In this document: positions 167 through 63,134 of the stretch, piece after piece
How positions within the stretch are numbered: the stretch's first letter is position 1
How the letters are laid out: every line of letters begins with the position of its first letter
NCBI GenBank assembly: GCA_905178155.1
Contig: CAJINV010000002.1
Location: 2,574,226-2,638,225 of the forward strand
Length of the DNA: 64,000 nucleotides
DNA from: Amoebophrya sp. A120
Taxonomy: Eukaryota > Protista > Dinoflagellata
Reading direction: 5' to 3'
Position numbers and translations under genes: made by a program
The notes under the pieces: model-generated
Database searches by the model: none
Seen by the model: the letters and a program-made list of their open reading frames with translations, nothing else
Told to the model about the DNA's origin: nothing

Positions 167-3100
167 ATGAAGCGACTTTTTGCTGGGGAGATAAATAGCA
201 AAGAAACTGTGAGGTCAAGAACCTCTAGTCAGGATCAGGAAGGAGCTGGTAATAGTGGAACAGTAGGAATAACTACGCATTCGCAGCATGGACTAGCGCA
301 AGAACAACACGAGGACCAAAGTTCTTCTGTGGCTTTTCCAACTGCGACCGAAAATGAAGACGAGCTGTACAACTTCGGGACGAGAACTAATACTAACAGC
401 CAGAACTTGGTGAGAAACGACCTTCACAGCGGCGCTCGTACGGGACGATTGTTCTTACCACCTGCCCGTCCTGTTGCAGCGAGTTCTAGCTCGGCCGCAG
501 CAGAAGTCGCACAACAACTACCCCAAGCACTATCACCAGACCGCTCTTCCGAGAACAACCGGAGTCGGCACGCTATCGTACCGGCCCAAGCTGTGGATAA
601 CGAGGCAGGTGACTGGTTCAATCCGTTTGTGAAGTCAAAGGAGACGAGTGTCAGTAAGAGCAGTGACAGTAGTTGTGACAAATCATCTGGCGATATCGCA
701 CATAGTAAACTGCAGAAAGATGAAACAGAATTTCTGGACACTGAAGAAGATTACTCGAACACCATCACTGCGGGTTCTCGTGCAGGAGTAAATCAAGCAG
801 GACAACTACAACATCAAAGGACAACTACAAATACAATCTCTGCTGCTGCCGTTCCGAAGAACCATATCAACCAAAACGTTCAACCAATTGCGAGTGCCAC
901 AGGACCACGAGCAGCAGCATCGTCACCGACCAATCAATCTTCGTCATCTGCCGCGGCGCATGATCCTCGCGTTGGGAATCTACTAGACCCGCAACAGCAG
1001 GTGCAGCAATCGAGCAGCGCAACGAGCGGCGAAGAAGACCTCGTCCACATCAGAGAAGAAACGCCTTTGAGCCGCAACGCGGTTTCGAAGCATCCCAGTT
1101 TTGCGTTAGCTCCGCAGAGTCGGAGTGTAGTAAATACAACAGCTCTTGTACTTCCTATCACAGCGGCATCAAATTTTGCTGGTGCATCTTCCACAGCAGC
1201 AAATCCCGCTGTACTACTCCTCGCCGCAGCCGCTCCTGCGTTAGGAGGTGTACAACTACCAACGGGAGGCAAAGGCGGCCAAGTCGTGGCTACTGATACG
1301 ACCCTAGGAACTTCTGCATCTTGTTCCCCTAGTGCAGCCACGAAGGGACTAAACCTACAACAACCATCAAGCTGGACCTCCAAGGGGACAGGGAAAAAAA
1401 TGACGGCCGGCTATAATTTAACATCCCCAGCTTTTTCTGTCCAGAACATTTACCAATCCCAGCTGGATACCGAGGAAGAGCGAAAACGCATCCTACAGTA
1501 CCAGCAGGCCATCCGCGCAGAGGATGAAAGAAGACTCCGGGAAGAAGAGCGGCGGGTTGCCATTGAAATGGCGGAAATCCAAAACAAGGCCTGCCCGGCG
1601 CACATCTACGAGCCGGGGAGCAATAGACTGCAGTTGGGAGGTGATGGAGAAGTATTGAATCCAGAGCCGGACAGCGATATCCTGTGCAAAAGTATCGTAC
1701 TCGTATTGCAATCATGCATTACAAATCTTTTGCGTAAGGTAATTCCGCATTACAAATTTTATTTCTCACGCTGAGGAAATTTGTAATGCATTTGTACGAG
1801 TACGATACTTTTGCGGGGCATAAGCGAGAGGAAGCGCCGGAAAAAAGATTTGAACGAGCGAGAAATGCATGAACTGGAAGAAAAGGGATTTATCAGGAGT
1901 AAACCGCCAATGCTGGTGGTGGGCAGCAGCAGCAGTAGTAGTCTTGGTGCCGCCGCGCCGCGGTCGAGTTCCGTGCCGGTAGAATTACTCTTCTTGATAT
2001 ATGGACTTTATTTTATCTTTTTGCTTACAGCGCGATGTGGTTTTTCAACTTGATTGAACATACCATGGTTGTTGCGTCAGTTGCTTTTGCAGGCTGCATC
2101 AAAGCATGTGCATTCTATTGGGTCACATCCACATGGCAACGAAAATCTTTTTCCTCAAAACGCACAGATCTCCGCCGCCAGTGCGAATCTTCTACCGCTC
2201 GTCCAAGGTGGCACGACGGACACAGCAGTTGCTGGCAGCCACACGACAACGTCTACCTTAACAACCCGGATGAACAACCCCCGCGCCTCCCTCGACCGTC
2301 GCCCCCCGCGGCTCGACGGAGGTCCGAAGTCCGCGACTCCGGGCCAAAAGTCATTTGTCGTTTCCAAGCCGAACGGCAAGTCGCCGCTCACAGGACCCGG
2401 CCGCGGGCGCGGCAGCGGGCGGAAGAATTTGATGAACACAATGTCCGGAAGTACTAGAGGGAAAGGATTCGGGAAACAACAACAACAGGATCTTCAAGGC
2501 TTTTCTCCAACACCTATCAAAAGGAAAAATCCCCCCTCCCCATATCGAAACGAAGTTTCTGATGCTGGATTTCCGTACACAAATCAGATTTGTCGTGCAG
2601 TAGAGGACTGCAGGCATATGTCAAGCCTCAGTCGAGAGGTTTTGACGTAGGCGCCTAGCATGGCAAACGTGTATGCTCTAATCTAAACAGCATCACAAAC
2701 CGCCTGCAAAATGCAGGGCGCTCTCTGGACTTGCCTTCTTGCAAGACAGACAGGATTTGAGGTCACAAATGCGCATCGTAAATTTTCAGACGGATAAGTT
2801 TTCAATATGGGGAGGGGGGATTTTTCCTTACGATAACACCGCACTTGCGGTCGTTCTCTTCGCCGGGCGTTGGGAAAGGTGAGGTGTATGCATTGCAAAT
2901 ATGATGTCTGGGTCTGTAATGGTGCAAGGTCTGATGCTGTCTCTGGATTCTAAAAAAATCTGTGTTGCATGACCGGCAGGAGGATTGCAGTTTGTACGAC
3001 GTGGGGATGACATTTGTCATGCGGGATAGGCATCAGGAAGCCCTTACAAAATCTGTGACGCTAGGTCACGCATTACAGGCATCATAGGTCATGCAAAATA

Positions 3101-9900: not shown

Positions 9901-12178
9901 ATTTGATAAATTCTAAAACCGGACGACGATGAAGAATCCGAGGACTCCGAGGACCGCAGACACCGGCTGGAGCTCGAAGAGACGCTGAACAGAAGAAAAA
10001 ACAAAGGCGCACAGAAACAACTAAACCGCGCGCAAAAAGCAGCGGAAAAGCGGGCCAGTGAGGAGAGGAAAGCGGGAGCAGTAGCCGGGGCGGGAAAAAT
10101 AAACATCAACGTGAGGAAAAAGGCGATGAAGAAAGTCGTTTTGAAGAATTTTTATCAAATGTCGAAGCAACAGCAGGGGAGAATAGCCGCCAATACGAGA
10201 AGGGACGCGAAAGAGCTCGGGCTGAACGTATTAGATTAAATTAAAATTTTTACATTTGCGTTTCTTGTCGTCTGAATGGTGAGGGTCACTCATGCCTTGG
10301 GACGATGATGCAAAGTTGAAGAGCTGTGTTTTTTTTTCTCGATAACAAGGCACGATGTTGATTGTCTCTATCACACATCACTGCAGGTCGGACACCAAAA
10401 AATGGGACCTGTCGACGCGTACAAGAAGGCGCTGGATAAAAGTAGGATGCAAAGCAGCCCGAGTAGCAAGGCAAATCCGAAGGCTGCTGGTGCTGCGCCA
10501 AAAGCAAAAGCAAAGGCCGCTGCTGCTTCTTCCTCTACAACTTCCAGTCTCTTTGGTCTGAATCAACGGCAGTTTTACACCAATTACAACAAAAATAACA
10601 GTACGAACAATAACACTTCAAGTAGATCTCCGGGCAGTGCTGCAAGGCAATTGGTCGCAGCACAGGACGTATCAAATGCAAAAATGTCTGGGTCTAGACG
10701 GTTGGAACTTGTGATGCTAATTTTGGACTCTAAAGAAATCTGTATTGCATGACCAGCAAGAGGAGTCTAGTTTGTGCTACGCGGAGAGGGCATTTGTCAT
10801 GCGGAGTAGCATCAGGCAGCCCTCTAAAAATCCGTGATGCTAGGTCGTGCATTACAGACATCCTAGGTCACACAAAATATGCATCACAAACCCGGCAACA
10901 TTCCAGACCCAGACACTTTTGCATTTGATAGGACGAGGATGTTGAGCCAGCTCCGGCGAAACGCGGTCGGGGGAGGCCACGGAAAGACGCACAACAGGAA
11001 CCAGCTCTTGCAAATGCTGCTGCTGTGCCTAAAGCAAAAGCTGGAACAACGACCTCCAAACGGGGTAGCGGGGGCAATGAGAATGACGAGGACGATGAAA
11101 TAAATGGAGCTTCAGGGAAGAAAAATAAGTCCGGAAAAAAGATCACCCCGGACAAGAAGAAGAAGCCGAATTTGCCGGGATTTCAGACCGACAAAATTTT
11201 GGAAGAACTCCGAGCAGAGGAGACGCCGGAGAGCCCCGAAGAGGACACGCCGGAGGCTATTCTGAGTAAAAACGTCCCCATCCCACAGTAGTTGTCATGC
11301 AGCGGTGCAATGACAGGAACATTTGTAATGCGCAGCTCCATGAGAGGCATTTCCAATCGTGTTTTGGAATTTGTAGTGCTGTAAACAGGATCATAAAATG
11401 GCTTTGTCATGCGGCTTTCCTTGCCAACCAGCACTACACTGCAGAGGGAATTTTGTCTTGCACAGCTCCCAAAACTTGGAGACTTGTGTTGCTAGATCCC
11501 CAACTTGACTATGGGGTGGGGATGTTTTTGCTTAGGATAGAGGCACAGCAGGCGTTCGCGCAAATCAACGCCATGCAGCGGAGGGCGGCGGAGGAGAGGA
11601 AAAAGCGGGAACTGGAGCAAGAGAAGTTATTGAAGCAACAGGAAGTAGAGCAACGAAAACTGCAGCAACAGCAGCAGCAAAGACAACAGCAGCAACAAAG
11701 GCAGCAGCAACAGCAGAGACAGCAGCAGCAGCAGCCCGCTTCCTCTTCAGCTGCGTCTTCCTCTTCCGCCCCGAACATTTTTCAAAAGGCGTTGAACCGT
11801 CAGGGATCGAAAAACATTTTCCTCAACCCCTCTTCCTCCGGAGCCTCGTTGCAGAACCTGGGCGCGGCATTGGGTCTTGGCGGGGGAAGTGCCAGCCGGA
11901 ACAATAGCAAAAACACTTCATTATTTTCCGGGAATAATGCGTCGAGTAGCAGCTCCGCAAGTAAACCGAATATTAAAGGTGGTGGGGCTCCTGTGAAGAC
12001 GCCGCCGCAGGGAGGAGGTGCAGGAGGAGCAGGGGCGAATGATAATGGAATTAAAAACAACAACGGCCGGAAGATGAATACCAAGGCGAACAAAAGCGTT
12101 AATATTTCTCCACCGCCCGCCGCGTCTCCGGAGACTTTTGACGGCCCGAGTCCGGTCAGCGCGACGAAAAGGACGTGA
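3920..12178 (+). CDS. Gene 2: very large low-complexity/coiled-coil protein with AT-hook (KRGRGRPRK at about 10959-10985) and polyQ; probably nuclear
   Basis: ORFs 5813, 6585, 8214, 8595, 9067, 10402, 11025, 11297 join in frame via 7 introners and 3 GT-AG introns; junction near 5702-5805 unresolved, so this may be two genes. Confidence 0.6.
6168..6432. mobile_element. Introner family A
   Basis: TIR; DR GCAGA. Confidence 0.9.
6493..6646 (+). other. GT-AG intron carrying introner motifs
   Basis: AG|GT at both ends, in frame; GCATGAGA and TGTCATGC inside. Confidence 0.65.
7230..7491. mobile_element. Introner family A
   Basis: TIR; DR ATCAA; element+DR = 267 nt, stop-free. Confidence 0.9.
7924..8188. 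mobile_element. Introner family A
   Basis: TIR; DR ACGGC. Confidence 0.9.
8472..8706. mobile_element. Introner family A (diverged)
   Basis: TIR; DR CCTCG/CTTCG. Confidence 0.85.
9013..9175 (+). other. GT-AG intron
   Basis: AG|GTAAGA..ATCAG, phase 1, in frame. Confidence 0.7.
9653..9908. mobile_element. Introner family A variant
   Basis: TIR TATCAACTGTAAAAATCCCTGGATGTCTGGAA; DR AATTC. Confidence 0.9.
10228..10386 (+). other. GT-AG intron
   Basis: GTATTA..CTGCAG, phase 0, in frame. Confidence 0.6.
10670..10930. mobile_element. Introner family A
   Basis: TIR; DR GGACG. Confidence 0.9.
11258..11539. mobile_element. Introner family C
   Basis: TIR TATTCTGAGTAAAAACGTCCCCA; DR GAGGC. Confidence 0.9.
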
Positions 12179-12272
12179 GAAGTTTTGCTGAATGTCTTAC
12201 TTTACAACCAGTTGATATCATTTATTACAACACGTTACGCACGAAATACCTCAAAAATACTAACTTTTTATC

Positions 12273-14270: not shown

Positions 14271-14717
14271 TGTGCTTTCTCTCTGTTACGTCCAATCAAG
14301 TAAGCGCACTACTACGCGCGACAAAGAGAGTCGCTGCACTGCGCTCGACACCTTCTTTGCAGGCCGTGGAGTAGCGGCAGTTGGGTTCTTCATGCTCGAT
14401 AGGGGATCCATCGCTCTCTTCATCAACATCCGAAGCGACTTCTGCACAATAACGGAGGCTGGGACATGTATTTGATGTGCAGGAGAAGTTGAAGAAGGTT
14501 CTATCCGATCGCAAATAGAACTTTACCTGTTTTAGTAGTAAGCCCCAACAACTCAGCATAAGCTCTACCACCACGAGAGCTACATAAAACAGACGCCACA
14601 AGAAGAAGTAAATTTCTGCTCTGCGCCACAAAAACCTATTGCAGTAGACAACGAAATCGGAATCCGCCACGTGACAGCATCACTCTTCATCACTACATTC
14701 AAATTTTCTTCACAACC

Positions 14718-16890: not shown

Positions 16891-19800
16891 ATGGCCCCCA
16901 CAAGTAAATCTTCCAAAAGCGGTCAATCCGCCCTCCCTTTCAATCTCCTCCAACGGAAGGACTCCATTTCCGACCTTCCGCAAGACCAGCTGAACGACCA
17001 GAACGCGATCGCTTTTCTCAAAGACCGCCTGGACGATGAGCTTGGGTGGGCGTTCCTCGGGAATCTCCGGGACAACCATTTACTGGTCCTGGATGAGCAG
17101 AACTGCGAGGAGGGGATCAAAATTCTCCTCGGGCAGGATGTCGACCATGTGGAGTTGCAGCAGCAAAATTTGAAGCAACTCGGAATTAATAAGCCGGGCG
17201 GGAACCAGGCTTTCTTGGCCAGAGCTACTCTCGGCGGGGAATTAGGCGCTCGGTCTCTCCGGAAGTTGACGGACAGTGATAACTGCTTTGTCTGTCTCGG
17301 AGATAGCAAACGCGTCATCGGCCACAGTTTGATCACAAATTTGCTGAAGAAGTCGGATGAATTTCAGCTCCAAACGGTTGTTTACGACAAAATCCTGAAA
17401 GAAAATTCCTTTTTGAAAAACCACCTCCGTCCGAGAATCCCGCTCGCCGATAAATTTCGCGTCGGGTGCTACATTCTGCGCGAGTTCGCGCAACTGCCGA
17501 ATTCCCGCATGGCGTTCCCCCACATGACGGAGCTGGTTTTTGACCACAACGACCACTGCCTCGGCTTGTTGATCGAACCGTCCCTCGGCCCGTGCCACAC
17601 AAAGCAGTGCACGGAATACCGGATCTTCGACGCGTTGTGTTTCCCGAACGACGGAAGATATGCGCCGACGCGAGCGAGTATCAAATGTAAAAATGTCTGG
17701 GTCTGGAAGGTTGCCAGGTTTGTCATGCATATTTTGCATGACTCAGGATGTCTGTAATGCATGATCTAGCATTACATATTTCTAGAGGCGCTCCTGATGC
17801 CTATCCCGCATGACAAATGCCCTCCCCGCGTAGCACAAACTGGGCGCCTCTTGCTGGTCATGCAATACAGATTTTTTTAGAGTCCAAAGTTAGCATCACA
17901 AGTTGCATTCTTCCAGACCCAGACATCTTTACATTTGATAGCGAGCATTCGGGACAGCTACGTGGATCAGGGGGGGATGACGGGGCAAGACGACAGTTCC
18001 AAATTCGGCAAAACGGAGGACATTATCGAGGACGTCGTCGGTTTACCCGGGTTCCAGATGGTGAAACCCGGAAATACGAAAAAAGCAAGCAAAGACGGCG
18101 AGGACCAGTCCAAACAGCAGCAAAAATTCACTTATGAAAACGAAACGAAGCAACCCTTCATCGACGCGAACATCACTTTCGCAAACCCATCGCTCCGCAA
18201 GGCGTTTGAAATGCTGGACGTGTCGGACAAAAACGTTGCGCAAATTGCGTCGATTCTCGCCGCAATCGCGATTTTGTCCAAAATCGAATTCACCAACCGC
18301 CAAGAATCCGCGGTCAATGCGCCGATCACGCCAGAGTCCGGGAAAGAACCGCACGACAATGAAGTTCCAACTTTGACGAAGTCGAGCCAACAGCGGGCCA
18401 AGGACGCGGCGAAATATCTGGGGGTGGAATCCGACGATTTGATCGCGTTTCTGACCATGACGAAGGTGAAAGTCCCGGAGGGGGTTTTGCAGCGGAATTC
18501 GATGTACAAAGGGGCGAATCCAGCAGCTGCAAATGCGGACGGTACAAGTAAAAATGTGAACAATCCGAACCAGACCGGTCGCTTCCTGGACGAAAACCGG
18601 TTTGCCACCGACATCGACCCGGCTAGTCTGGATTTAGCCGGGAAAACTTCACTGTCCTTTCTGAAACTGGAACTCCGGCGGTTTGTCCGGGTGTTGTACA
18701 ACCGTTTGTATTACCGGGTGATCCTCCGCTCGATCAACCGGGGTCTTTCCGACAAAATCGCGCCGATGTTCTTGGAGTTAGTCGAGCAGTTCGGGCAACA
18801 GAATTTGACGAGTGCTAATTCCAGCAATTTTCCGATCGACTCCCCGGCGATTATCCCGTGTCAAGCCCGACCGGGTTGTTTGATGCACGCCAGGGCTTTG
18901 GTCCGGAAGCAGATTGAGGAAGGGCAAATTTCGGACAACAGCAACTCTTTGCCCTTTTTAACCCAAAACTGCAAGTCGGTTGTGTCTGTCATCGATGGTC
19001 TCTCCGACGTTGTCGAACCTTTCGAATTGAATGATTCCTGGACGCAATTTTTCAAGAACTACGCGTTCGAGAAGTTCCAGGGTTTGTTCGAGGAAAACCT
19101 CGTGATGCAGCAAGCCTTGTACCGGAAAGAGGGGGTGAAACTCCACTTCTCCGGCGTGTCCGCCGATAATTCATCCTCTGCGGTGACAATGTCGAAGGAT
19201 AAGACTGGTCAACACCAACACGCCGGACACATTCTCGCGGATCTGGGCCCGAGTAAGGAGGAGCGGATTGGGTTGCTGGATAACATGAACCTGATCATCA
19301 ACATTCTCGACAACTTTCTCCACGAAAACTCCGAGAAGGGAAAGGAGCACCGGCAGACGGCGAGAACCGGGGGGAATTTGGATTCGAAATTTCACGAGGA
19401 GCTGATTTTAGAAACTAGCGGGTTGAACAGCAGCAATACGACCGAGGCGGGAGCCGCTGGCGGTGCTACTTCCAGTGCACAACCTACTACAACGTCGAAT
19501 AAAACCTTCCAGACTGTTGCCGCGAAGAAAAGATTGGATATTTCTTCGAAATCCAAATCTGGCGGGCGTGTGGTTTCCTTCCAACTCATCCACTACACGG
19601 AATCCCTATCAAGTGTAAAAATGTCTGGGTCTCTGGAAGAGGGCAAGACTTGTCTTGCAGGTTTTCCATGACCCATGAGGCCTGGCATGCCGATCCTGCA
19701 TGAGAAACTGCCTCTAAGAACCTGTGGCAAAAGTGGGAAACTTTTGGCGACCACGCAACACAGATTTTTGTATGATTTAGATTTACCATGACAAGTTGCA

Positions 19801-39500: not shown

Positions 39501-41023
39501 TCGCGAAGAAAAAATGGAAGTATCAAAAAGCACAAGGTCAAGTGTCCCTTGCCGCGCATTCTTTTTTTGTCTGCCAATAAAAATACAAGATCTACTTTTA
39601 CTCTACATGCTGCCTGTGAGCGCTACTTGCTTTGTCGATGACACGTCTCTGACGGCAGTTGTGCCGCTGCAGGAGCGCATCATCAGGTTTGTTCAAATGG
39701 TCGGGAGGAGGATCACCACTGCTTGTGCCCTTGCATAGAAATCCGAGCTGAACGCGAAGCTGGGAGAAAACGGCAAGAAAAACGGAAAAGGAGCAGAAGA
39801 AGAAGACCAAGAAGGGCCGCTGGGCTTTCTGGACGAGTGGTACTTCCTGATTCCCTGCGGCTGCGTGGTGCTCTTGTGCATCATCGGCGCTTTCGTGCAC
39901 GTGCGGCGCGAGCGCGCCCGGGCCCGGTTGAGCTCGGTGCGCATGTCCAGTGGCGGCCCAGAATCGTCCGTCTCGGGGTCGACGCAACCAGCGTCCGGCG
40001 CAACTAGGTCCAGCCGCGGTTCGCAACGAAGCAGCCGCGGCTCCGTGCGCCCGTCCCAAGCGTCGAACGCCTACAAGAGCGCAGTGTTGGCCTCGGACCT
40101 GCCCTCGGCGATCCCGGAAGGTTATCAAATGCAAATATGGCTGGGTCTGGAATAAACTTGCGATGCAAGAAACGAAATAGTGAGCACACTCTGATGCGCT
40201 GCCAAGCATGACAAGTTTTCCCGTGGTTCTGAGTTGCGTACTCCGCTTGAGAAACTGCGTTTTTGCATGAAAGGCAAGAGGAGCGCTTTGCGGCCGCGCA
40301 ATACAAAGTTCAGAGTCATGCTAGACTAGCATGACAAATCTCGCAATTATCCAGACCCAGATATATTTGCAATGCATATGGGCGGGCCGGGAGAGGAGGG
40401 TGTCCCGGACGAGGAGCCCGGTACGTCGGAAGAGGAGGTATCAAATGCAAATATGTCTGGGTCTGGAAGAATGCAGATTTTTGTCATGCTGTTTTTGCAT
40501 GACGCGGAAGGTCTGGCATGGAAGCCCTAGCATCACAGGTTTCGAGAAGGTTCCGCAATGCCTAACCTGCATGACAAGATTCCCACTGTGGCGACTGGAA
40601 AAAATGGGCAACACTTGCTGCCTACGCATGAGAGATTTGTATGTGTTGTGAAATGCGCATCACAACTGCGCACTTCTACAGACCCAAACATATTTGCCAT
40701 GCATAGGAGGAAGAGGAAGTCGACGAGCTCTCGGAGAACGACTACCAAAAAACAGTGACCAGGGCGAGCAGGGTATGCAAGAAAAAAACTGTGTAAGTGT
40801 AACTTTGTAATGCAGAACATGCAACAGAGTTACGCCTGTCATGCCAGACAGCCATGAAGTCCACTTTGCATGTGTGTTTTCCCTTACAAGCCACGCATGA
40901 TAGGTTTTCTCTGTCATGTAGAGCAAATTTGTGATGCTGTCAACCAAAGAAAGTTACACTAACACAGTTTTTTTCTCGCGATACAGGGCCAGCGATTCGC
41001 GGAACGGATTGTTGGAAGGGTGA
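30592..41023 (+). CDS. Gene 6: type I membrane protein with about 6 Cys-rich EF-hand-like repeats
   Basis: Spliced frame gives MDTDGDGQINTNEV, MDVDGNGHIEKHEV, DLDSNNDGEITQDEV, GDGDGKLTxxEL..CxxVCVP..VCHCCP repeats and TM WYFLIPCGCVVLLCIIGAFV; 26 introners plus 2 GT-AG introns; TGA 41021-41023; start uncertain. Confidence 0.8.
30939..31136 (+). other. GT-AG intron
   Basis: GTATAA..TCACAG, phase 2, in frame. Confidence 0.6.
31428..31631. mobile_element. Introner family F-like
   Basis: TIR TATCGCGAGAAAAAAGCGTTACAGTTG; DR TACGT. Confidence 0.85.
31666..31972. mobile_element. Introner family E
   Basis: TIR TATGGAAGCGTCAGGTTTGAAATCGTCAAAGTTGAAAT; DR CGCCA. Confidence 0.9.
32022..32179. mobile_element. 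Introner family D
   Basis: TIR; DR diverged CACTA/CTTTG. Confidence 0.85.
32234..32460. mobile_element. Introner family G
   Basis: TIR TATGAGAGTACAGAACTCCC; DR CGACG/TGACG. Confidence 0.85.
32529..32800. mobile_element. Introner family A-like
   Basis: TIR; DR CAAAC. Confidence 0.85.
33055..33352. mobile_element. Introner family A (diverged)
   Basis: TIR; DR GGTGG/GCTGG. Confidence 0.85.
33433..33590. mobile_element. Introner family D
   Basis: TIR; DR GCTGA. Confidence 0.9.
33665..33925. mobile_element. Introner family A (mixed A/A-variant ends)
   Basis: TIR; DR CGTGG/TGTGG. Confidence 0.85.
33978..34240. mobile_element. Introner family A
   Basis: TIR; DR TCTTT. Confidence 0.9.
34595..34854. 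mobile_element. Introner family A
   Basis: TIR; DR CGATG. Confidence 0.9.
34941..35145. mobile_element. Introner family F
   Basis: TIR TATCGCAAGAAAAAACTGTTTCACTGTGA; DR TGATC. Confidence 0.9.
35293..35604. mobile_element. Introner family H
   Basis: TIR TATTACCATGAAAAATGCCCCC; DR TGCCA. Confidence 0.9.
35657..35918. mobile_element. Introner family A
   Basis: TIR; DR CGTGC/CGTAC. Confidence 0.9.
36130..36422. mobile_element. Introner family C
   Basis: TIR; DR CTGGC/CCGGC. Confidence 0.85.
36482..36652. mobile_element. Introner family D
   Basis: TIR; DR ACTGC. Confidence 0.9.
36748..37044. mobile_element. Introner family C
   Basis: TIR; DR CGGAT/CGGAC. Confidence 0.9.
37103..37314. mobile_element. 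Introner family F
   Basis: TIR; DR GAGGC/GAAGT. Confidence 0.85.
37752..37979. mobile_element. Introner family G
   Basis: TIR TATGAAAGTGCACAACTCCCCCTCCCCCT; DR GAGAA. Confidence 0.9.
38115..38332. mobile_element. Introner family D-like
   Basis: TIR; DR TCGTG. Confidence 0.85.
38407..38618. mobile_element. Introner family F
   Basis: TIR; DR GTGTG/GCGTG. Confidence 0.9.
38654..38904. mobile_element. Introner family F-like (old)
   Basis: TIR TATCCAGGAAAA/TTTTCCTGCATA; DR not intact. Confidence 0.75.
39045..39298. mobile_element. Introner family A
   Basis: TIR; DR GTGGC. Confidence 0.9.
39351..39452 (+). other. GT-AG intron
   Basis: GTATTT..TTCCAG, phase 2, in frame. Confidence 0.65.
39521..39737. 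mobile_element. Degenerate introner, unassigned family
   Basis: TATCAAAAAGCACAAG/CTTGTGCCCTTGCATA; DR GGAAG/GAAAT. Confidence 0.7.
40123..40378. mobile_element. Introner family A
   Basis: TIR; DR diverged AAGGT/TGGGC. Confidence 0.85.
40439..40705. mobile_element. Introner family A
   Basis: TIR; DR GGAGG. Confidence 0.9.
40774..40983. mobile_element. Introner family F
   Basis: TIR; DR CAGGG. Confidence 0.85.
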
Positions 41024-47595: not shown

Positions 47596-49879
47596 ATGCG
47601 GTATCGAAAGGAAAAATCCCCCCTCCCCATATCGAAAACGAAATGTGTGATGCTGTATTTGAGGTCACAAATCGACTTGTCATGCTAGAAGGCCAAGAGC
47701 CGCAGTCGTGGCCTCGTTTGCAGGCAATTTGTCATGCTGAAGATGCAAGGCTTCCCCACGTCAACCTGCACTACAGTCCGCATCTTTTCCCGTGTAGCAT
47801 GACAAAGCTGATTTGTGACAACAAATCTGCATCACAGATTTCCGTTTTGATATGGGGAGGGGGAGTTTTTCCTCTCGATATGCGGCTGTTCGCCAAGGCC
47901 GTCCTGGCCACCACCGCGTGCACCGTCGCCGTGGATGCGAAGCGCATGTGGAAAAACAAGGAATTATTCCGGGCAAAAACGTCCCCACCCCAAAGTCACG
48001 ATGGGGACTTAGCTACACAAACCAACAAGTTTTGGTTGTTGCGCATGACAAGTTTGGACAAGGAAAAATCCAGTCGTGATTACCTAGGTAGTGAAGCCGC
48101 ATCACAAATTGCGCGCGTGCTCCTAATTCTAGTATGACAAACTCGTCCCGGATAGCACTACAAAAAATTTTTCCCATGTGGCTGCGCATGAGACGCATTT
48201 CAGGTACTGCAGATTTGCATGACAAGAACTCTGGGGTGGGGACGTTTTCACACGGGATAGGAAGGCCAGCAAGTGACGAAGAAAACCACCCTTACGACCT
48301 ATTACAATGAAAAGTGCCCCCACCCCAGAACTTGGGAGCATTTGTATTGCAAACCTTTCCAAATGAAACACTCGCCCTCTTGCATCTATCAGCATCACAG
48401 GTTTTCAAGCGTGAATAGCGAAAATTTGTATTGCAAAAGATCCCAGCAGAAGCGGCGGTTGTCATGCAAGCGATGCTATATACGACTAGACTCTGCATGT
48501 GCGGCAGAAAGATTCATACTCCTTTCATGCATGACAAAAAGTTTTCATTTGGAAACTTCGCATCACAAATTATTGCAACTTTGGGGGTGGCGGGGGCATT
48601 TTTCCTTGCAATACGACCCACACGGCGGAGCACAAGTTGGCTGTTAGCATGAAAAAGATCGGGAACATGCAGAAAAAGTTGGCCCAGAAATTCGAGAAGG
48701 CGCGCTCGCTGGCCAAGCAGAATAAAAAGAAGCACCACCTGGTCGAGGAGGTGCAGAAGAAGCAGGACCTCCAGGAGCTGCAGCAAACCATGGTTGTCAC
48801 CGCGACCGGCTCTCTGCTCGAGCTGAAGGGTGACGATGACGACGACGATATCCTGAGCAAAAACGTCCCCACCCCAAAGCTGTCATGCAGATTTGCATCC
48901 ACAGAAACGTCTGTAATGCGCATCGGCATTAGAGGATTTTGTAGTCGTATTATTAGATTTGTAATGCTCTAAACAGGATGTGCATGCGTTTTTGTGATGC
49001 GGCTGTCCTTGCTAAACAACACTATACTACGGATGGAAATTTGTCATGCACAACTCCCAAAACTTGGAGATTTGTGTTGCAGATTTACCAACTTGACAAT
49101 GGGGGCGGGACGTTTTTACACAGGATAGACGACGGTGATGGTGATGACGACGACGGTGATGGTGATGACGAGGGTGACGGTGACGGTGATGTATCAACTG
49201 CATTTATGTCCGGGTCCGGAAAAACCTTGTAATGCTGGAAAGGAAAAGTGAAAGCACTGCAATATTACGTAGCCAAGCATGACAAATTTTTGGGCTGCTA
49301 TGTGTTGCGTATTCCTATGCGGCATGGCAGCCCGCGTTCTTCTAGCTCGACAGGCGAGAGGAGGGCCTTTTCGTGGCCATGTGATCATGTCAGACAAGCA
49401 TGACAAATTTGGCAATCGTCTTCCAGACCCCGACCGGTGTTTGCAATGCATATGAAGATGATCAGGACGACGATGATGATGGCGGCGGCGGCGGTGGCGG
49501 TGGTCGCTCGGGTCCGGGTGTCGCGCGGTTCTGGTACTCGGTGTTGATTTATGCATTGCAAACATCGACCTAATTGAAAGGAGGAACTTCTGATGCTCAT
49601 TTTGCATGCCTGCAAAATCTGTGTTGCATGACGAGCAAATGCGGCGCTTGTTCGCCATGCAGAAACGCAGTTTGTAATGCGTACCGCGTACTACGGAAAC
49701 AAAAGCTCCACCAAAACTTGTGATGCTTGGCAGCACTTTGAAGTAATGGAGCCATCCAGGGTAGAAGTTCAGCATCACAGGTTATTTGTTCCAGATTCAG
49801 ATCGATGTTTGTAATGCATACACACTGCTGTGGTGTGTCCGCCTACGTCTACGCGCTCTGGTACCTGGTCGAAAACTGA
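47596..49879 (+). CDS. Gene 8: small signal-peptide protein with Asp/Gly linker and C-terminal TM helix
   Basis: MRLFAKAVLATTACTVAVDA...FWYSVLICCGVSAYVYALWYLVEN* after removing 6 introners. Confidence 0.75.
47602..47880. mobile_element. Introner family B at start codon
   Basis: TIR; DR TGCGG. Confidence 0.9.
47965..48259. mobile_element. Introner family C
   Basis: TIR; DR GGAAT/GGAAG. Confidence 0.9.
48300..48613. mobile_element. Introner family H
   Basis: TIR; DR CGACC; close relative of 35293 copy. Confidence 0.9.
48849..49127. mobile_element. Introner family C
   Basis: TIR; DR GACGA. Confidence 0.9.
49192..49452. mobile_element. Introner family A-like
   Basis: TIR; DR TGATG/TGAAG. Confidence 0.8.
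49550..49820. mobile_element. Introner family A-like, DR lost
   Basis: TIR TATGCATTGCAAACATCGA; flanks TGATT/CACAC. Confidence 0.8.
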
Positions 49880-51339: not shown

Positions 51340-54300
51340 ATGGAGATGGCGACGTCCAGTGCTCTCAACTTCGATGGTGACGAAATCGATGTCGTGAAGC
51401 GTTTCGCTTCCTCGTCTTCTTCTTCCTCATCGTCCTCTATTTGTGCAGCTTCTTGTTCATCCGGCATTGGCCACCACCACCATCTATTTCCCCAAGAACA
51501 AAAAAAGATGTTGCACCGGCAGAACAAAAAACAATTTCCGCTTCTGCTCCGTGCGAGCGGAAGCCTCTGTGCACTTTACTCGGGAGTAGCTAGTCCAACA
51601 GGAGCGGCCTATTTCTTCTCGCAGCAAGTTGTACTGGGGGCAGGAGCGGCCGAAGATTCTGATAGGAACTACGCAGAGAAGAAGATTGACACGGGGGTCG
51701 TAGTGCCACAAAGGAGCAACTTGCGCCGTCGTGGGGGCAGGAAGAACTTTTTCGGGACGAGTCGTGAAGAAGGAGATGCGGGCAGCAGTGCAGCAGAACC
51801 AACATCGACTCTGTCGAGCACTACTACTTCTAGGCCCAATCTCCGGCATGGCGCGCGACTGAAATCGCTCCTGGAAATCAAGCAGAAAACAACTGCGCAG
51901 GATGTGCTGGCAGAGAGACCAGAACCAGCAGTCGGGACGAATCACGGGCGGGAAACATCAGAACAAATTTTCATCCCGGCGGATGAAATAGTAAATTCGA
52001 CGCAGTCAACATCAATTCCGTTCTCGACTTTGGAAAAAGTGAGCAAAATCAGTGAGGAAAAAACCAGTCTCGGCCAGCAGCTCTCGACAGCAGTAGAAAG
52101 AAACACGAGAACCTCGGAAAAGCAGGAAGAAGGTCGTGAGGAGCAAAAGTTCACCCTTGAAAAACAAACCCTCCAGCAGAAAGAACACCGCCGAGAGCAG
52201 ATTGCGAGGAAGATTTCGGAACTGAAGCAGAAAACGGCGACCGCGCAACAGCAAATGGAGCGGTTTTACCGGGAGCAGGTGCAAAAACGGATGCGGCTGG
52301 CGCGGTTGGACAAGGTGAGGACTACGAGAGTTGTGCAGGGGACCGGGGAGGTAGTGGCTGAAGGAAGTACAACTACCGGACGCAAAGCTCTAACTTCTTC
52401 TACGATGAAAGCCCGGGAAAACGAAGAACAGGCGAGCAAGCTCGCGGCGCGAATTAGTCAGGCGAGGAAAACGAAGGCGAAACAGAACCTCCAGGTGCGG
52501 AGAAAAGTGCAACGGAAGCGGAACTTGCGCGCGCGACGGCGTCTCGACCGGGACTCGGGCGATGACGAGGATGATGACGGTGACAATGATGAAGACGGCG
52601 GTGACGATGACAATGACGATGGCGGTGGGAACAGTGCGAGTGTGGAAGACAGCAGTGAAAGCGGCGGGTCCTCGGGCTCGTCGTCGGGGAGCGGGAAGAA
52701 GAGCAAGGTCGACAGTTGCGGTTTGTTGGGCTTGTGTGACTCGAGCAAGTATCCTCGATGAACTGGTGCAATAGTGCTTCGTACTTCTTCTTCTTCTTCG
52801 GTCTGATATACTGCATGACAGATTTGCTTTGTTCATTCTGAATCTGCATGACAAAAAATAATTTCCATGCATTCGAAAAACATAATGTCATGCAATGTCC
52901 CCTAGAAGTACAAGTAAGTCAAGAAGTGCGAAGACCAAAGTAGTTTTGCCTTGCATAGGAGGAAGAAAGCTTCCGGGGGAAAGAAGGAAGACAAAACGGT
53001 ACAGAATGTTGCCATCTGTGCCGGAGTGCTCTTCGTCTTTCTGCTGATAGCGGTCGGGCTGTGTGTCTGGAAAGAGAAGGAGCGCCAGGAAAAAATGCGC
53101 CAGGCGAGGCTGCGCAAGCGAATCGCCCAGGAGGCGGCGGCGACAGGAGGCGCGCAATATCGTATTTAAAAACGTCCCCACCCCAGAGTTGTAATGCAAA
53201 TCTGCATGCTCAGAATGTTTCTCATGCGGAGCCCCATGAGAAGCATTTTTTAGTCGTGTTTTGCAATTTGTCATGCTCCAATCTGCATGATGTACTAGAT
53301 CTGTGATACTGCTGAGCTAGCTCAAACAGCATTACGCTAAGAGCAGTCCGAATTTGTCATGCAAAACAGCCAAAACTTGTGGATTTGTGTTTGTCTAGCC
53401 GATTCCCCAGCTTGACTATGGGGTGGGGACGTTTTTACATAGGATACGCAAAGTGACGGCTTCACCCTGACGGGCTACCGGCGGGGGGACGTGCAAGCGA
53501 GGGGTATGATTCGGTGCAAAAGTGATAGTATCTTCGCCGGGTGGTCGTTGTAATTGCAATTGCAATAATGCACGACAGATATGCAGTTTTTTTTTTCCGA
53601 TTCCGAGTTAATATATGATTATCTGCACGACGATTTTTAATTGTAGTCCCCTTGTGCCTCTGAAAATAAAGTTTGTGATGCAATTTCTAGAAGGGCGGCG
53701 ATAGTACCTAATGCTTTTGCAATGCATAAGAGCTCAAGCGGAGCAGCGCGCGTTGGATGCGTACGAGCAAGATCAGAGCCAGCGGCATTTGGACGAGGTA
53801 ACTATTTTGGTGTTTGTCATGCATAGAAACGAATGCAGCTTGCTGCTGTCATGCATCGACCACATCATAACTGAATAATTTTCTTTGATGCAAATTGAAA
53901 TTTCGCATGCGTTTTCCCAACTAAAAAAAACAAGGTGAAGGAGCGCGGGTTTTGGTTAGCGCAGGATGAAGCGGACCGGTTAAAGGAAGAGCTATCCATT
54001 GCAAATATGTCTGATTCGGGACGAATGCAATATTTGTCATGCATCTCGCAGACCAAGACCATCCACATGGTTTGGAATGTGCACAAGCATCACAGTTTTT
54101 GCGAGACCTTGTTGATGCCTCTCCCGCATGAGAGGTCCTTTTGCCTAGGAAGAGGTGGAGGCCTTTTGTCTTCATGCAACACAGATTTCTTTTTGGTCGA
54201 GGCCTCGCATGACAAGCTACATGCTTCCAGACCCAGAGACATTTGCAGTGGATAAGGGCGGGATGGGTACAATGCTTATTACGAGGAATATCAAAATGAA

Positions 54301-54651
54301 AAATCTCCCCTCCCCATATCAAAACGGAAATTTGTGATGCTGATTTGTGAGCACAAATCAGCTTTGTATTGCACAAGGGCACTGCGGCCAGATCCCCAGG
54401 CTAGGTAGGGGCGTATGGGTCTAGTAGTTCAGCATGGCAAACGGCCCCCCTTTAGGCCCAACAGCATGAAAAATCGCTTCCATAATGGGGCGGAAGCTTC
54501 TGCCCTTGTCTTCTTGCAAGACAGGTGTGATTTGTGACCTCAAATCCGCAGCGCAAATTTTTGGAAACATACCTTTTCAATATGGGGAGGGGGGATTTTT
54601 CCTCTCAATAAGGAAGAGGACGAGTATTACGACGACGGTTCCTGGTGGTGA
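51340..54651 (+). CDS. Gene 9: coiled-coil single-pass membrane protein
   Basis: ORF 51340, TM VAICAGVLFVFLLIAVGLCVW, tail ending YYDDGSWW*; 5 internal introners, one at the stop codon, GT-AG intron 53798-53934. Confidence 0.7.
52750..52957. mobile_element. Degenerate introner, unassigned family
   Basis: TAT..ATA, GCATGACA motifs; DR GCAAG/GGAGG; in-frame removal. Confidence 0.65.
53158..53446. mobile_element. Introner family C
   Basis: TIR; DR CGCAA; close relative of 21027 copy. Confidence 0.9.
53505..53728. mobile_element. Introner family D-like (old)
   Basis: TIR remnant TGCAAAAG; DR AGGGG/AGAGC. Confidence 0.75.
53798..53934 (+). other. GT-AG intron with introner motifs
   Basis: AG|GT at both ends; TGTCATGC x2; in frame. 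Confidence 0.7.
53993..54254. mobile_element. Introner family A
   Basis: TIR; DR AGAGC/AGGGC. Confidence 0.85.
54289..54610. mobile_element. Introner family B
   Basis: TIR; DR AGGAA. Confidence 0.9.
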
Positions 54652-54958
54652 TATGGAAGCGTCAGGTTTGAAATCGACAAAGTTGAAATGATTTGTCATG
54701 CATAAAATGCATGACGCGACTTACGTGTGTTGCAGAGCAACCAAGTGAGACCGATTGTAAGCCTGTTTGGGGTTAGAGGTTGAGCTGCTAAAGTAGCATG
54801 AGAAAATCAGTCCTCTTTGCCTAAACAGCATGACAAACTGGATTGCGGTAACGCCGGAATTTGTCTTGCGCCACTTGGAAACTGGGTTCCGACTGGCATC
54901 CAATTCATGCATGGCAAACTATTTCAACTTTGACGATTTCAATCCTGACACTCCCATA
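54652..54958. mobile_element. Introner family E at stop codon
   Basis: TIR; DR GGTGA; close relative of 31666 copy. Confidence 0.9.
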
Positions 54959-56265: not shown

Positions 56266-59200
56266 ATGAGGCGACTCAACACCGGGAATAAAAAAGCATC
56301 ATTGTTGCTCGGCTTTCTCTCCCACCAGCACCAAATCGCCCTTGTGACCGGCAGGATAGGTCGTGGTGGCCGAAGTAGAGGGAAAAATAGTGGAGAGAAG
56401 AATCTTCACGCAGCCGCTCCTTTCACGACGCAGCAAGAGGAAACACAAACTACACCATCAGCATTTCACGCCGAAACTAAAAGTCTCCTCGACCTCGACG
56501 AAGGAGGGGGTGTCCTCCAGGAGCCCAAAATAAATACGGGAGAGGATGATGATAGTACAACTAGCACGACCTTCGACCTCGAGGCGCATGAAAACGCGTT
56601 TTCCGCACTGGAGATAAATTTCAGCGTGAAGATGTTGAACAAGGAGAAGGAAAACGAGGTGGAGGCGAAACACACTAAATTGAACGTCGAGGAGGAGAAA
56701 ATGAGCAGCAAAGAGGGACGAGAAAATGTCGAAAAAACATCCTCCGAAAGAACGGCCTCCCAATACGAGCAGAAGAAAGAACAGACTTCTGCTAAGCAAC
56801 TCTCCGCTGCTACCGCTGCTGCGCCGAAGAAAAAAGACGAGGAAAGCGAGGACGATGAGGGCGGGGATGACGACTATGGGAGTGTAGTCAGGTTTGAAGT
56901 CGACAAAGTTGTCCACTTGCTAGACCTGCAAGACAGGCACTCTGTGCATGGCTTTTCATGCATGGCAAATCCCATTCCAACTTTGTCAATCTCGGTCCTC
57001 TGGGCGCTTCCATATTTGCGACGGAGATGATGATGATGACGGACACGGAGATGAGGACGAGTATGGAAATTGAAAGCTCCAACCGAATTCTGAGGCGTGA
57101 ATCGAAGCATAATTGCTGCATCAAATTATCACCAGGATCATGAACAAGCACTGTGTGAACGAACTCCTGCGCTGCACGGAGCTACTTCACCATAACAAGA
57201 ACAGAGGAAATTTGTTGATATTTCAGAATTCGTTTTTACCCCTTCCATACCCTCGGCGGAGAAGACGAGCACGAGGAGGGCGGGGAAGACGAAGGTACCG
57301 AGGAGGAGGAGGAGGATCCCAAAAAAGCGAAAAAGGACGCCGCTATCGCCGCCAAGAAAGGCGCGAAGTCAGCTGCACCTCCTGCGAAAGCGGCAAAACC
57401 GGCAGCGAAAAAAGAGGAACCGGAGGAGGAGGAGGGTGAAGAGGAAGAGAATTATCTGGCGGAAAAGAAAGTTGAATCGTTTTCATCAGTCAAAGCACAC
57501 GGTAGAAACATCGCGCACACACCCACAATTGATGCATGACTTCACCTCTCATGGTCGGGAGCGGAAAGAACTACATGTTTGGAGCATAGCCCTACAAGAT
57601 TGTTATATTTTTTCTTGTAGACGAGGACGACGACGAGCCGACTGACGGATCGATACGTTTAAATCTTTTCTGAATCTCCATACCGGCGAAGAGGGAGGTG
57701 ACGATGACGCAGAAGAAGATCGCGACGGTGACGATGCTGAACCGAAAAAAGGCAAAGACAAGAAAGCCGCGGCGGGGGGTAAAAAAGGGGGTACTAAAAA
57801 GCCCAAAGGTATGGGGGTGTCAGAATCGAAATCGTCAAAGTTGAAATAGTTTGTCATGCATAAAATGCAGCCCACAAAGTGCCTGTCTTGCAGATTAGGC
57901 ACGTCAGGCAGATTGTAAATTTCCTGTTGAGGGGAAGGGGTAGACATTGAGATGCTAAAGTAGCATGACAAAAGGCGTCTTCCTTACGCAAACAGCATGA
58001 TAAACTGACTTTCGGCTCTGCCCAAATTTGTCATGCGCCACTTAGCAACTGGGTTACACTTACAACTTTCATCCATTTTATGCATTACAAGTCATTTCAA
58101 CTTTGTCGATTTCAATTCTGACACATCCATAAAAGGCCCAGCGAAGAATCCGGAGGAGGAACAAGCGGAAGAAGAGCCAGCGGATGATAAACCGAAGAAA
58201 AAAGAACCCTGCTGTGCGGGCGCGGCGACGGAGAAAATGCACAAAGCAGCGGACAAGAAAATCCGAAAGACCGGCAATCTTGCGGAAGATGACGATGAGT
58301 TTCTGCACAGCTGTGGCTGCTCCAACTCCTCCGCGCTCCTGCTCATTTTCTGCCTGACCCTCCTCTGCGGCATGATCGCTTTTATCGTGCACAGCTACAA
58401 GCGGCAACAGTTTCTCGCGGAGCGCGGGGCCGGGCACGCGCACAACTCCGCGGCACGAGCGAACGCGCACAAGGGCGTCGACACGCAGGGTTTCGGCGGC
58501 GACAACCTGGATATCAACGGCAAATATGTCTGGACGGTCTGCAAATCTGTATTGCGCATTTTTCTTGACTTGAAAATCTGTGATGCATGAACCGGATCGG
58601 GAGCACCACAGCGCGACTGTCTACCATGCAAAAGCAAAACTTGTCATGCTAACTCCGCATTGCGTACACCACTTGCTTCAAGAACCTTTTGATGCTTAGC
58701 TAGATGCTGAGGTTCGTCTCTTATGGAGCGAGTAGCATCACAACTTTCCAAAGAGCGCAGACATATTTGCAATGCATACTGGACGACATCAAGTTTCCGG
58801 CCGGTGGTGGCACAGCACCCCGACCAGAACGGATGAAAGGACCGCCGGAGCAGTATCAAATAAAGGAGAAATCCCCCGTCCCCCTATCAAAACGAAGTTT
58901 CTGATGCAGGATTTGCGTACACAAATCAGATTTGTCTTGCTGGAGAGGAATGCAGGCCCATACTAAGCCTAAGTCTAGAGGTTTTGGCCTAGGCGTCTAG
59001 CATGAGAAACGTCCACACTGTAGGCCCATCAGCATCACAAACCGCCTGCACAATGCTGCGGAGCTTGTGGAGTTGTCTTCTTGCAAGACAGACGCGATTT
59101 GTGGTCTCAAATCAGCAACGCAAATTTCCGGAAACATACCCCTTCGATATGGGGAGGGGGGATGTTTCCTTTTGATAAGCAGGGGAAGGGCATGTCCCCG

Positions 59201-60716: not shown

Positions 60717-63134
60717 ATGGGAGGCGCTTGCGCATCGAAGCAAGCGGTAGCAGCAGCGGAACCCGCTGCGGCAGCTCCGAAAGCCGAGAAAGGTACGAGA
60801 AATTATGGAGAGAAAAAAGTTTGTCACAGTCACTATCTTGCAGGTTTTGCATTACAAATTTTCTCAGCATCACAAACTTTCCTTGTATTGCAGAAACACT
60901 AGGGAAATCCCTAATGAAGTTTGGCTGTGATGCATTTTTACGCATGACAAACAATTTTGTATTGCAGGAATGCGCATGAGTGATCGTGACGAACTTTTTT
61001 TCTTTGATAGAAATGGTAGTAACAACAATAATTCTGATAACGAAAGTACTCCCCCACCTCCGTTGAAGTTCAACGATGAGAGCATTCCAAAAATAATAAT
61101 ACACCCCCCAGTGCCCACGCCCGAGCCGAGCAGCGCGAACGCCATCACACCGCAGCAGAGTGTATGGAAAGGAAAAACTGTTTCACTGTAGTAAACTTGT
61201 GATTGGCATAGAATGCAAGAACACAGACGCGTTTGGCTTGCTACACATGCAAGACAGTGATTGGGTTTTGAAACGTGTTTATTTCTCGTAGGAAGTACGC
61301 ATTGCAAGTTTTCTCTGTCATGTGTACTGAACTTGTGATGCAAAACCTGCAAAAAAATCCTTGCAGTGAAACATTCCTTTCCCTCTCCATACTCCGCGGA
61401 CGTCGCTATCCCCCGTGAGGAGTCCAAACCCGCTGCCCCGATTCCGACCGGGAAATTCACCGAGGATGCTATCCTATGTAAAAACGTCCCCACCCCATAG
61501 TTGTCATGCATATGTGCAATGTACAGGAAGATTTGTAATGCGCATCTCCATGAGGGACATTTCCAGTCGTGTTTCGGACTTTGTAAATATAATGCTGTAA
61601 ACAGGATGAGAAGCTGGGTTTCTCATGCGGCTGCCCTTGCTAACCAGCACTACACTGCAGATGGAAATTTGTGATGCACAACTCACAAAACTTGGAGATT
61701 TGTGTTGCAGCCTTCCCATCTTGATTCTGGCGCGGGGACGTAGTTTTTACTCAGGATAGATGCGTACTTTGAGCTACCGGAAGGCGTCGCTGCCGAAGAG
61801 GTCACCAAGTTTCACTCGGCCGTGCGGTGGGGCATATGCATTGCAAACGTATCTTGCTGGTAGAAGTCCTTGCAGTCTTGCATGACAAAGCTGGTTTCTG
61901 TAGGCAATGCACCACGACAAGTTCCAATTCCATTTGTCATGCTGAGCAAATTTGTGTTGCCATTACTCCTATCACGCTACTTTAACTTTTGCAATGCATA
62001 GGGCAAGCCGATCGCGGATTTGGAGCCGTTTTTGGTAGAGGACATGGGCGGAAAACCGGATTTGCTCAACGCCGCTGATTATCAAATGCAAAAATGTCTG
62101 GGTCTGGAAGAATGCAACTTGTAATGCGTATTTCAGAACACCATGCATACGTAGCAAAAGCTCCCACTTTTTGTCAGAAAAATAGGGGACTTGTCATGCG
62201 GATTCGGCATTGCGGAAGGTTCTCCAAACCTGTGATGCTAGAGCTTCCATGCCAGCCCTTCTGGGTAATGCAAAAACAGCATGACTCTTCCAGACCCAGA
62301 CATTTTTACATTTGATACTGATCAGAAGAACGGGAACCGGGCCGTGCACATCGCCGCGCAGAATGGGCATGAGGAGATCACGAAGTGGCTGATTGGCACG
62401 CTGAGTGCGGATGCGAACGCGCAGAATCGGAAGGGGCAGACGCCGTTGCACATGTATAAAATTGTGTTGAATGAACGTGCTTCACCTTTTTATGCATGAC
62501 AAACCACGGTTCTGAATGGTACACTCTGCATCACAAATCTATATGGCAAATCAGGTCTATCGAGTACGACTTTTACTTTCAAAACGTTTTTCTCCTGACG
62601 TCCGGCGCGGACCAAACCTTAACCAACGCGGACGGGCACCCGGCGATGTTGGGCATCGACGGGAAATATGCATTGCAAATATGTCTGGGTCTGGAAAGTT
62701 GGAACTTGTAATGCTGGTCTTGCATTCCTGTCAGATCTGTATTGCATGACTCACAAAAGTCGCAGCCTCTACTGTCATACAAAAACGCAGTTTCTCATGC
62801 GGAGCGCGTATGAGGAAGCGTTTTGCAAACGTGTAATGCGTTCCTGCATGAGGGAGCGTTTTCGTCATGCACATTTCAGCATCACAAATTTCCAGACCCA
62901 GACATATTTGCATTTGATAGGAAAAAATCCGGGGTGGAGGCCTGGGATCACGCCATGCAGAAGCTGAAGGCCGTCCGGGATGAAGCGAGTATGGAAGACG
63001 CGTTTGCGGCACTGGAAGCGTGCACGGATGAACTGGACAAGGGCATGCTGGGCATGACGGGGATGAAGAAAAAGAAGCAATACAAGGAGTGGTGGGATGT
63101 GAAACGGTTCACGGAAATCATGTCGAAGTTTTGA
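60717..63134 (+). CDS. Gene 11: ankyrin-repeat protein with N-terminal myristoylation/palmitoylation-type motif (MGGACAS)
   Basis: FHSAVRWG, NGNRAVHIAAQNGH, NRKGQTPLHMS ankyrin motifs; 6 introners plus GT-AG intron 62454-62554. Confidence 0.85.
60804..61009. mobile_element. Introner family F-like
   Basis: TIR TAT..AGAAAAAAGTTTGTCAC; DR GAAAT. Confidence 0.85.
61163..61391. mobile_element. Introner family F
   Basis: TIR; DR diverged GAGTG/CTCCG. Confidence 0.8.
61470..61758. mobile_element. Introner family C
   Basis: TIR; DR GATGC. Confidence 0.9.
61835..62000. mobile_element. Introner family D-like
   Basis: TIR TATGCATTGCAAA; DR GGGCA. Confidence 0.85.
62080..62317. mobile_element. Introner family A
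   Basis: TIR; DR CTGAT. Confidence 0.9.
62454..62554 (+). other. GT-AG intron with introner motifs
   Basis: GTATAA..ATCAG; GCATGACA and GCATCACA inside; restores TPLHMSIEYD. Confidence 0.75.
62667..62919. mobile_element. Introner family A
   Basis: TIR; DR GGAAA. Confidence 0.9.

Follow-up and report, generated by a model that had tools for sequence, protein, structure and literature searches.

Short repeated elements that are skipped as introns (introners) have been described from the dinoflagellate Amoebophrya sp. A120, for which the text of PMC7789003 reports about 30,000 such introns and states that both their movement (no putative transposase) and their splicing (U1 not detected) are open. 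Here we analyse 64,000 nucleotides of this genome (the window; assembly GCA_905178155.1, contig CAJINV010000002.1, positions 2,574,226 to 2,638,225 of the forward strand), in which genes co-oriented on the + strand are broken up by short elements that share an internal motif, arranged mostly as same-orientation pairs 31-33 bp apart. The elements themselves match the published A120-type introners, a class that is already known. In the text of PMC7789003 and PMC12130899 those introners have the same end consensus (TAT, seven variable bases and an A-run), and they are also alike in short direct repeats, lengths (about 150-330 bp), non-canonical junctions, many families and co-oriented genes. Their direct repeats at exon borders are given as 3-5 nt in the text of PMC7789003 and as 5 bp in its Fig. 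S19 legend, and the part of Gozashti et al. 2025 (PMC12130899) covered here enters the A120 families mostly as 'TIR DNA, Unknown' (TIR, terminal inverted repeat) among 19 of 58 rows. The searched text and supplements of these two papers, the figures lying outside the search, contain no internal motif, no pair spacing and no rule that places the splice sites at fixed offsets from the ends (-1/+4, see below); the searched text of PMC9860276, PMC11453091 and bioRxiv 10.1101/2020.10.14.339549 (in its preprint form) holds no internal motif or spacing rule. The motif and its spacing grammar inside these known introners are apparently undescribed, in agreement with a prior annotation made from the letters of this stretch alone (the sequence-only reading), which knew of no description of the motif; none was found in the literature searched.

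Other transposons offer partial parallels. The text available for the hAT element Herves (PMC3143072) describes a transposase that binds a short subterminal motif, which lies inside and apart from the inverted repeat, and suggests that binding is cooperative; titles among its references name Ac, Tol2 and Tag1 as well. The elements described here differ in that one motif serves families that cannot be aligned, occurs throughout the element and is paired at a fixed spacing of three helical turns. The target duplication of hAT elements is usually 8 bp, compared with 5 bp here. Multiple, helically phased protein sites apart from the cut ends are known from bacteria, in the Hin enhancer with Fis, the Mu enhancer and the TnsB sites of Tn7; those systems differ in being bacterial and in having known proteins, and no sequence relation to them is claimed. 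The closest termini are those of IS3EU/GingerRoot elements, with similar TA..TA ends and with fungal members that end in TAYGG..CCRTA, like our family F and one family of a close relative introduced below (PMC10045372 and PMC12730594, in the parts covered); since their duplication is usually 6 bp, and 5 bp here, membership is not claimed. Subgroups hAT5 and hAT6 are also named in the searched part of PMC12730594, and that of PMC12130899 reports, as a candidate, an A120 family that combines inverted ends with an integrase-like frame.

The elements were first collected by a motif-blind scan for TAT...ATA ends, a 5-bp direct repeat and end-to-end inverted similarity, which gave 71 elements; seven were added by inspection (five of them after leftover motif hits) and two from transcript-length arithmetic. 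The final set of 80 elements (1678..62919) covers 20,066 bp, shows the 5-bp target duplication at 0-1 mismatch in 67 cases, and sorts into families A to H and three old singletons. For comparison, a pattern search of metagenome contigs yielded 145 loci (497 kb, one assembly) of a close relative with 355 short elements; these were found without the motif, but the loci were chosen by the family A end and family A is over-represented. The relative is 94% identical to the window at locus L117, only L117 and L118 overlap the window, and alveolates are the best named matches of its RPB1, whose top match overall is 86% identical. Ends common to all families, as seen in the profile of the 355 elements and in the window ends too, consist of TAT, seven variable bases and then an A-run; the detector demands the TAT but not the A-run at positions 11-15. 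The ends in strain A25, by comparison, start with TTA. The elements are repeated, with a summed DNA contig depth of up to ~140,000 against 41-52 for single pieces, a figure that is not a copy number.

The strict octamer GCAT(G/C/T)ACA occurs 241 times in the 80 elements (12.0/kb) and eight times elsewhere: five in five GT-AG introns (622 bp), one in 12,690 bp of intergenic DNA and two in the remaining 30,622 bp. When the elements were shuffled 100 times with dinucleotides preserved, 5.5 +/- 2.4 octamers arose, with a maximum of 12, so that the enrichment survives control for composition. Restricting the count to the 71 motif-blind elements gave 227 octamers (110 on the + and 117 on the - strand) in 18,076 bp versus 22 in the other 45,924 bp. 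The fuller consensus is GCA(T/A)(G/C/T)ACA(A/G)(A/G), with 3.5-7.5 sites per element in every family A-H and at least one site in 432 of the 433 elements counted in the window and the relative together. Not counted are two old elements, which joined the set later and carry no site. Neither an exact site nor a pair is present in any of the three old window elements. The sequence-only reading had proposed that the octamer recurs in both orientations in all families A-H and is rare in exons and intergenic DNA, and both statements are borne out. It had also counted about eight variants in the element at 17679..17940, where multiple sites are indeed present and the number at >=7 bits is seven, and had placed TTGT..ATGC just inside the left end with its complement inside the right, which holds for families A, E, F, G and H and fails for C (often reversed) and B (nearly all sites one way).

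Analysis of positions brought out a paired unit that the earlier annotation had missed. Same-orientation pairs in the window number 111 at 31-33 bp, as against one at 26-29 bp and five at 35-38 bp, and the family-weighted pair count is 12.2, whereas 2000 shuffles of position gave 2.3 +/- 0.6 and never more than 5.0. A pair at 30-34 bp was found in each family (A 34/36, B 10/10, C 8/10, D 6/8, E 5/5, F 4/4, G 2/2, H 2/2) and in 358 of 433 elements when the relative is included; with one mismatch per site allowed, 72 of the 80 window elements carry a same-orientation pair at 30-35 bp. The relative's elements alone show the same peak (6.4 at 31, 12.8 at 32 and 3.9 at 33 bp), and the 32-bp distance occurs in 15 of their clusters. 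The three shortest elements (112-113 bp) are made up of their ends and of two sites that point the same way, with centres at 40 and 72-75, and four elements of 112-129 bp hold between their ends one pair only, 31-35 bp apart. The outermost site almost never lies less than 35 bp from the element end. The spacer between paired sites holds little information, and an origin of the pair by tandem duplication was rejected (spacer identity 0.28-0.30 versus 0.25). Families differ in number, order and orientation of their pairs and keep the spacing. The shared spaced motif and the 112-bp minimal element could serve as bait for the protein and as a signature by which an autonomous partner might be recognized.

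After masking of motif and ends, 18 subfamily consensuses can be aligned inside a family (z up to 104), while between families z is mostly below 4 and at most 6.6, a few comparisons falling at 4-6.6. The families are therefore not simply homologous over their bodies, as the sequence-only reading had held; its statement that the inverted repeats are likewise unalignable did not stand, the ends all having TAT, seven variable bases and an A-run. Within family A, too, there are subfamilies that no longer align with one another once the motif is masked, so the families may still be remotely related. Compared with other internal positions, core positions of the motif depart from the subfamily consensus 0.28-0.40 times as often in five divergence bins (390 of 431 copies, the other 41 being aligned over less than 90% or diverged by at least 40%), which answers in the affirmative the question of conservation against flanking sites. 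Private differences (singletons) run at 0.020 per site in cores and 0.036-0.037 elsewhere. The copies were also split by duplication mismatches, as a measure of decay after insertion; the resulting ratios, 0.33 and 0.35, were not informative.

The sites are neutral with respect to transcription: 544 lie on the inferred sense strand and 525 on the other in 223 elements (p = 0.58), by a strand heuristic that is correct for 72 of the 80 window elements. None of 18 subfamilies is significantly strand-biased, nor is there a significant bias in insertion orientation. Family B, in which nearly all sites point in one direction, is inserted both ways and removed both ways. Back-to-back (divergent) pairs are phased at about 10.25-10.5 bp, with a coherence of 0.40 against a null 99th percentile of 0.30. 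Three turns of B-DNA correspond to 31.5 bp. The spacing of 31-33 bp, the lack of strand bias and the phasing of divergent pairs together point to a protein that binds the duplex. This bears on the earlier suggestion of a common cis code that is either a DNA binding site or an RNA-level splicing mark: the common code is upheld and a DNA site fits, and the motif does not appear to be a required splicing signal, since elements that lack the pair also appear to be removed.

Removal was assessed on transcript-like contigs from four runs of one study, for which the RNA label is only a guess. These contigs match the exons without differences and skip each element together with 5 nt. Among the 15 of 20 joints covered, direct observation accounts for twelve element joints and for one element nested in a GT-AG intron, and 37 further removals follow from contig-length arithmetic; in the latter, length residuals of 324 and 236 nt were assigned manually to the elements 39521-39737 and 57453-57682, the intron 39351-39452 and a one-base end correction at 57249. 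Five joints with decayed duplications limit the position of the cut (52748|52962, 53502|53732, 53990|54258, 56873|57019 and 61161|61396), and all five agree only with a cut 1 nt before TAT and 4 nt after ATA; the intron ends are then GT-AG, GT-AG, CT-GG, CT-TG and GT-CC. This is likely to be the splice rule in general. Under it position +2 is always T, and the 3' end is free, with all 16 dinucleotides represented among the 80 elements. Farhat et al. 2021 (PMC7789003), in the text covered, call the splice sites variable relative to the hairpin, whereas a fixed -1/+4 rule fits here; such a rule would allow exact intron annotation and hints that splice sites are fixed by the paired ends.

The pair itself may not be required for removal. 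The old elements at 57062, 57453 and 39521 would have GT-CT, TT-GG and GT-AA ends under the rule, their removal being supported by arithmetic with joints not seen singly. All six element-free RPB1 intron stretches in the relative's L054 (set by protein homology) lack a pair, as does the intron 30939-31136. The window copy at 40123, in which one site is mutated relative to the orthologue, is still removed. The apparent splicing of pair-less old elements and the pair-less RPB1 introns make an RNA splicing signal unlikely.

Pairs also occur where no element is recognizable. Near-perfect pairs are present in three of five element-free, transcript-supported GT-AG introns on the + strand, at a shuffle frequency of 0-0.0004: 28060..28143 (84 nt by length arithmetic; pair 28071/28103, -, 32 bp), 53798..53934 (joint seen; exact pair 53815/53847, -, 32 bp) and 62454..62554 (joint seen; exact pair 62494/62528, +, 34 bp). 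These three have no inverted ends and no similarity to the relative's loci beyond the motif region. A fourth GT-AG intron holds a weak pair at 40 and 72, positions typical of minimal elements, and four of the five start with GTAT. About eight similar end-less pairs were picked by eye in unique-looking sequence of the relative. Such pair-bearing introns could be minimal elements of some age, but under neutral decay the ends should not vanish while the pair is spared; this leaves room for a host function after insertion.

We favour, at a little above even confidence, the reading that the pair is a double-stranded DNA docking site for a factor that the families share for copying, and that the paired ends direct splicing. 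The motif lies in non-autonomous inverted-repeat transposons, which are skipped as introns in the transcript-like contigs. A spacing of three helical turns would bring the two sites to the same face of the duplex, and there the pair, at least about 35 bp from each end, may be bound by a dimer or a two-domain protein (the transposase or a needed host helper). The catalytic step would take place at the shared TAT-N7-AAA ends, with the 5-bp duplication as its trace. Splicing is likely a separate matter, governed by the paired ends with cuts at the -1/+4 positions. Selection via copying success, we propose, would lead each family to keep the pair while its body diverges, and the shared motif would then be evidence that many families depend on one machine. 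An ApiAP2-type reader, with the site TGCATGCA, is one conceivable candidate for the binding protein; no paper on such a protein in Amoebophrya turned up in the literature searched. Several results weigh against this proposal. A pair at 30-34 bp is lacking in 75 of 433 elements, among them a seven-copy family of the relative with alternating sites about 47-50 bp apart instead, and site orientation relative to the ends varies between families. Neither convergent pairs (0.20; null 95th percentile 0.32) nor same-orientation pairs outside 29-35 bp (0.13 versus 0.17) are significantly phased, and a general 10.5-bp comb among same-orientation sites beyond the main peak likewise lacks significance. 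Pfam recognized no transposase or binding protein among 96 frames, of which 16 come from the window and 80 are the longest of the 260 frames of the loci. About 560 kb yielded neither a long element bearing a coding frame nor an autonomous copy, and the text of PMC7789003 likewise gives no putative transposase for A120. The pairs in three GT-AG introns without inverted ends, for which selection on copying alone does not account, belong here too, as does the fact that few of the genome's copies were sampled, so that the conservation of the cores fits selection on copying and selection after insertion alike.

Some weight also goes to a host DNA-binding protein that reads the pair after insertion, as a chromatin or co-transcriptional intron mark, the elements having co-opted the signal and being tolerated in exons. 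We regard this as possible, if clearly on the unlikely side. It would account for the pairs in the introns at 28060, 53798 and 62454 and the end-less pairs of the relative, and for there being one strict site and no element in 12.7 kb of intergenic DNA; all the double-strand evidence fits it equally well, and the statement in the text of PMC7789003 that U1 small nuclear RNA was undetected calls for another route of recognition. Against it stand the three old pair-less elements with non GT-AG ends that by arithmetic still appear removed, the pair-less RPB1 introns and intron 30939-31136, and the removal of the 40123 copy despite its mutated site. Rather unlikely, to our mind, is a combination in which one host protein reads the three-turn pair on duplex DNA and both licenses copying and marks introns during transcription; if true, such a dual-role protein would amount to intron definition at the level of DNA and would explain the survival of pairs in GT-AG introns without inverted ends.

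Explanations that dispense with a DNA-binding protein fare worse. The motif might act as a single-stranded RNA splicing enhancer that marks introns for an unusual spliceosome: in the window it is confined to introns, and GCAUG, which it contains, is a known core of RNA-binding proteins. We hold this to be improbable, since the sites show no strand bias, the polar family B presents only one strand version to the RNA and is removed either way, pair-less introns are removed, and a rigid 31-33 nt spacing with a free spacer would be unusual for single-stranded RNA. A shade less probable again is that the motif is a relic without current function, all families descending from one element. The TAT-N7-AAA end and 5-bp duplication common to all families, the A subfamilies that barely align when masked and the few cross-family z values of 4-6.6 would agree with such descent, but the function-free form is largely refuted by cores that diverge about three times more slowly within subfamilies; moreover, pair number, order and orientation vary while spacing stays, and the spacers are not homologous. 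Common ancestry combined with function is possible. Least of all do we credit the view that motif and complement merely base-pair, lengthening an RNA hairpin that joins the splice sites. Predicted folds do place 28-30 of 54 motif bases in family A, and 28 of 56 in family F, in pairing with another motif, but in family B, of which four elements were folded, three are free of pairing between motifs, same-orientation sites cannot pair together, and pairing needs no identical sequence across unrelated families; family B and the single-pair 112-bp elements contradict hairpin pairing as the general reason.

Comparison with the relative also gave evidence of recent activity. At window positions 38948-39580, compared with L118, two family A subfamily copies are inserted 18 bp apart, one per strain, each with its own 5-bp duplication and with the site empty in the other strain. 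These are independent insertions in two strains, and the activity is recent.

Representative elements of each family illustrate the arrangement. The family A element at 17679..17940 has TAT...ATA ends, the target duplication GCGAG and, among its seven sites, pairs at 17721/17753 (-, 32 bp), 17736/17769 (+, 33 bp) and 17862/17893 (+, 31 bp), the last forming a single unit at 17862..17900 (+) of two same-orientation octamers whose starts are 31 bp apart. Another family A element, 62667..62919, is the last in the range covered by the sequence-only reading, and its joint was seen directly. The polar family B is represented by 11258..11539 (three pairs, all -, 31, 33 and 31 bp), by 28756..29043 in the opposite orientation (three pairs, all +; removed from a transcript-like contig by length arithmetic) and by 53158..53446 (sites mainly -; joint 53152|53447 directly seen in four runs). 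The 145-bp family C element at 1678..1822 has one pair, 1716/1747 (+, 31 bp), and the family D element at 34941..35145 has 34973/35004 (-) and 34988/35019 (+), 31 bp each. Joints were directly seen for the family E element at 54289..54610 (54333/54365, -, and 54432/54464, +, 32 bp each) and the family F element at 54652..54958 (TATGG...CCATA ends, two 32-bp pairs). Family G is represented by 37752..37979 (37892/37924, -, 32 bp) and family H by 48300..48613 (48427/48460, -, 33 bp; 48529/48560, +, 31 bp). The three old TAT...ATA elements, all with removal inferred from length arithmetic, are 57062..57249 (no exact motif, no pair, non-AG 3' end), 57453..57682 (no exact motif, no pair) and 39521..39737 (no motif even at one mismatch).

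A family D element at 60804-61009 is nested in the GT-AG intron 60793-61111 and is removed with it as a single 319-nt piece. At 34770-34844, a raw RNA run (X9, same species label) that covers only element-like stretches is rich in reads of a related family A copy whose flanks differ, and has none on the window exons; these reads are likely to come from another strain in which the element is retained in the transcript. The seven-copy family of the relative mentioned above (L015:2891 and six copies) measures 236 bp and has TATGG...CCATA ends and four alternating sites. The motif pair was also searched for in viral contigs, where 17 matches were found, none resembling the elements, and these were set aside as unrelated. 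Six long sequences of the relative were considered as candidates for an autonomous element and rejected: each was either a small element into which DNA had been inserted or a chance pairing, and none had a transposase-like frame.

The host genes recognized by Pfam encode a divergent myosin-head protein and an ankyrin-repeat protein (zones 16890-24450 and 60718-63130); most remaining window frames have no Pfam match, and a homology search with a myosin-like window exon returned no match. None of the 80 elements lies inside the intergenic DNA (ten zones delimited by eye, 12,690 bp), and a gene bias of introners in general is noted in the text of PMC9860276. Between genes, at about 12900-14330, there is a stretch of ~70% G+C with a perfect 15-bp inverted repeat (13516-13530/13851-13865), which has no Pfam match and no match in the relative's loci and is possibly another mobile element. 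In the relative, five elements are enlarged by 170-870 bp of unrelated, motif-poor DNA with ends and duplication kept (L018:4314-4770, L033:571-1051, L034:3862-4492, L054:4001-4972 and L061:2779-3926), the L054 copy sitting in an RPB1 intron position. Finally, where window positions 40259-40281 are compared with L117, the relative's orthologous copy has a patch like another part of the same element, which suggests a template switch or gene conversion.

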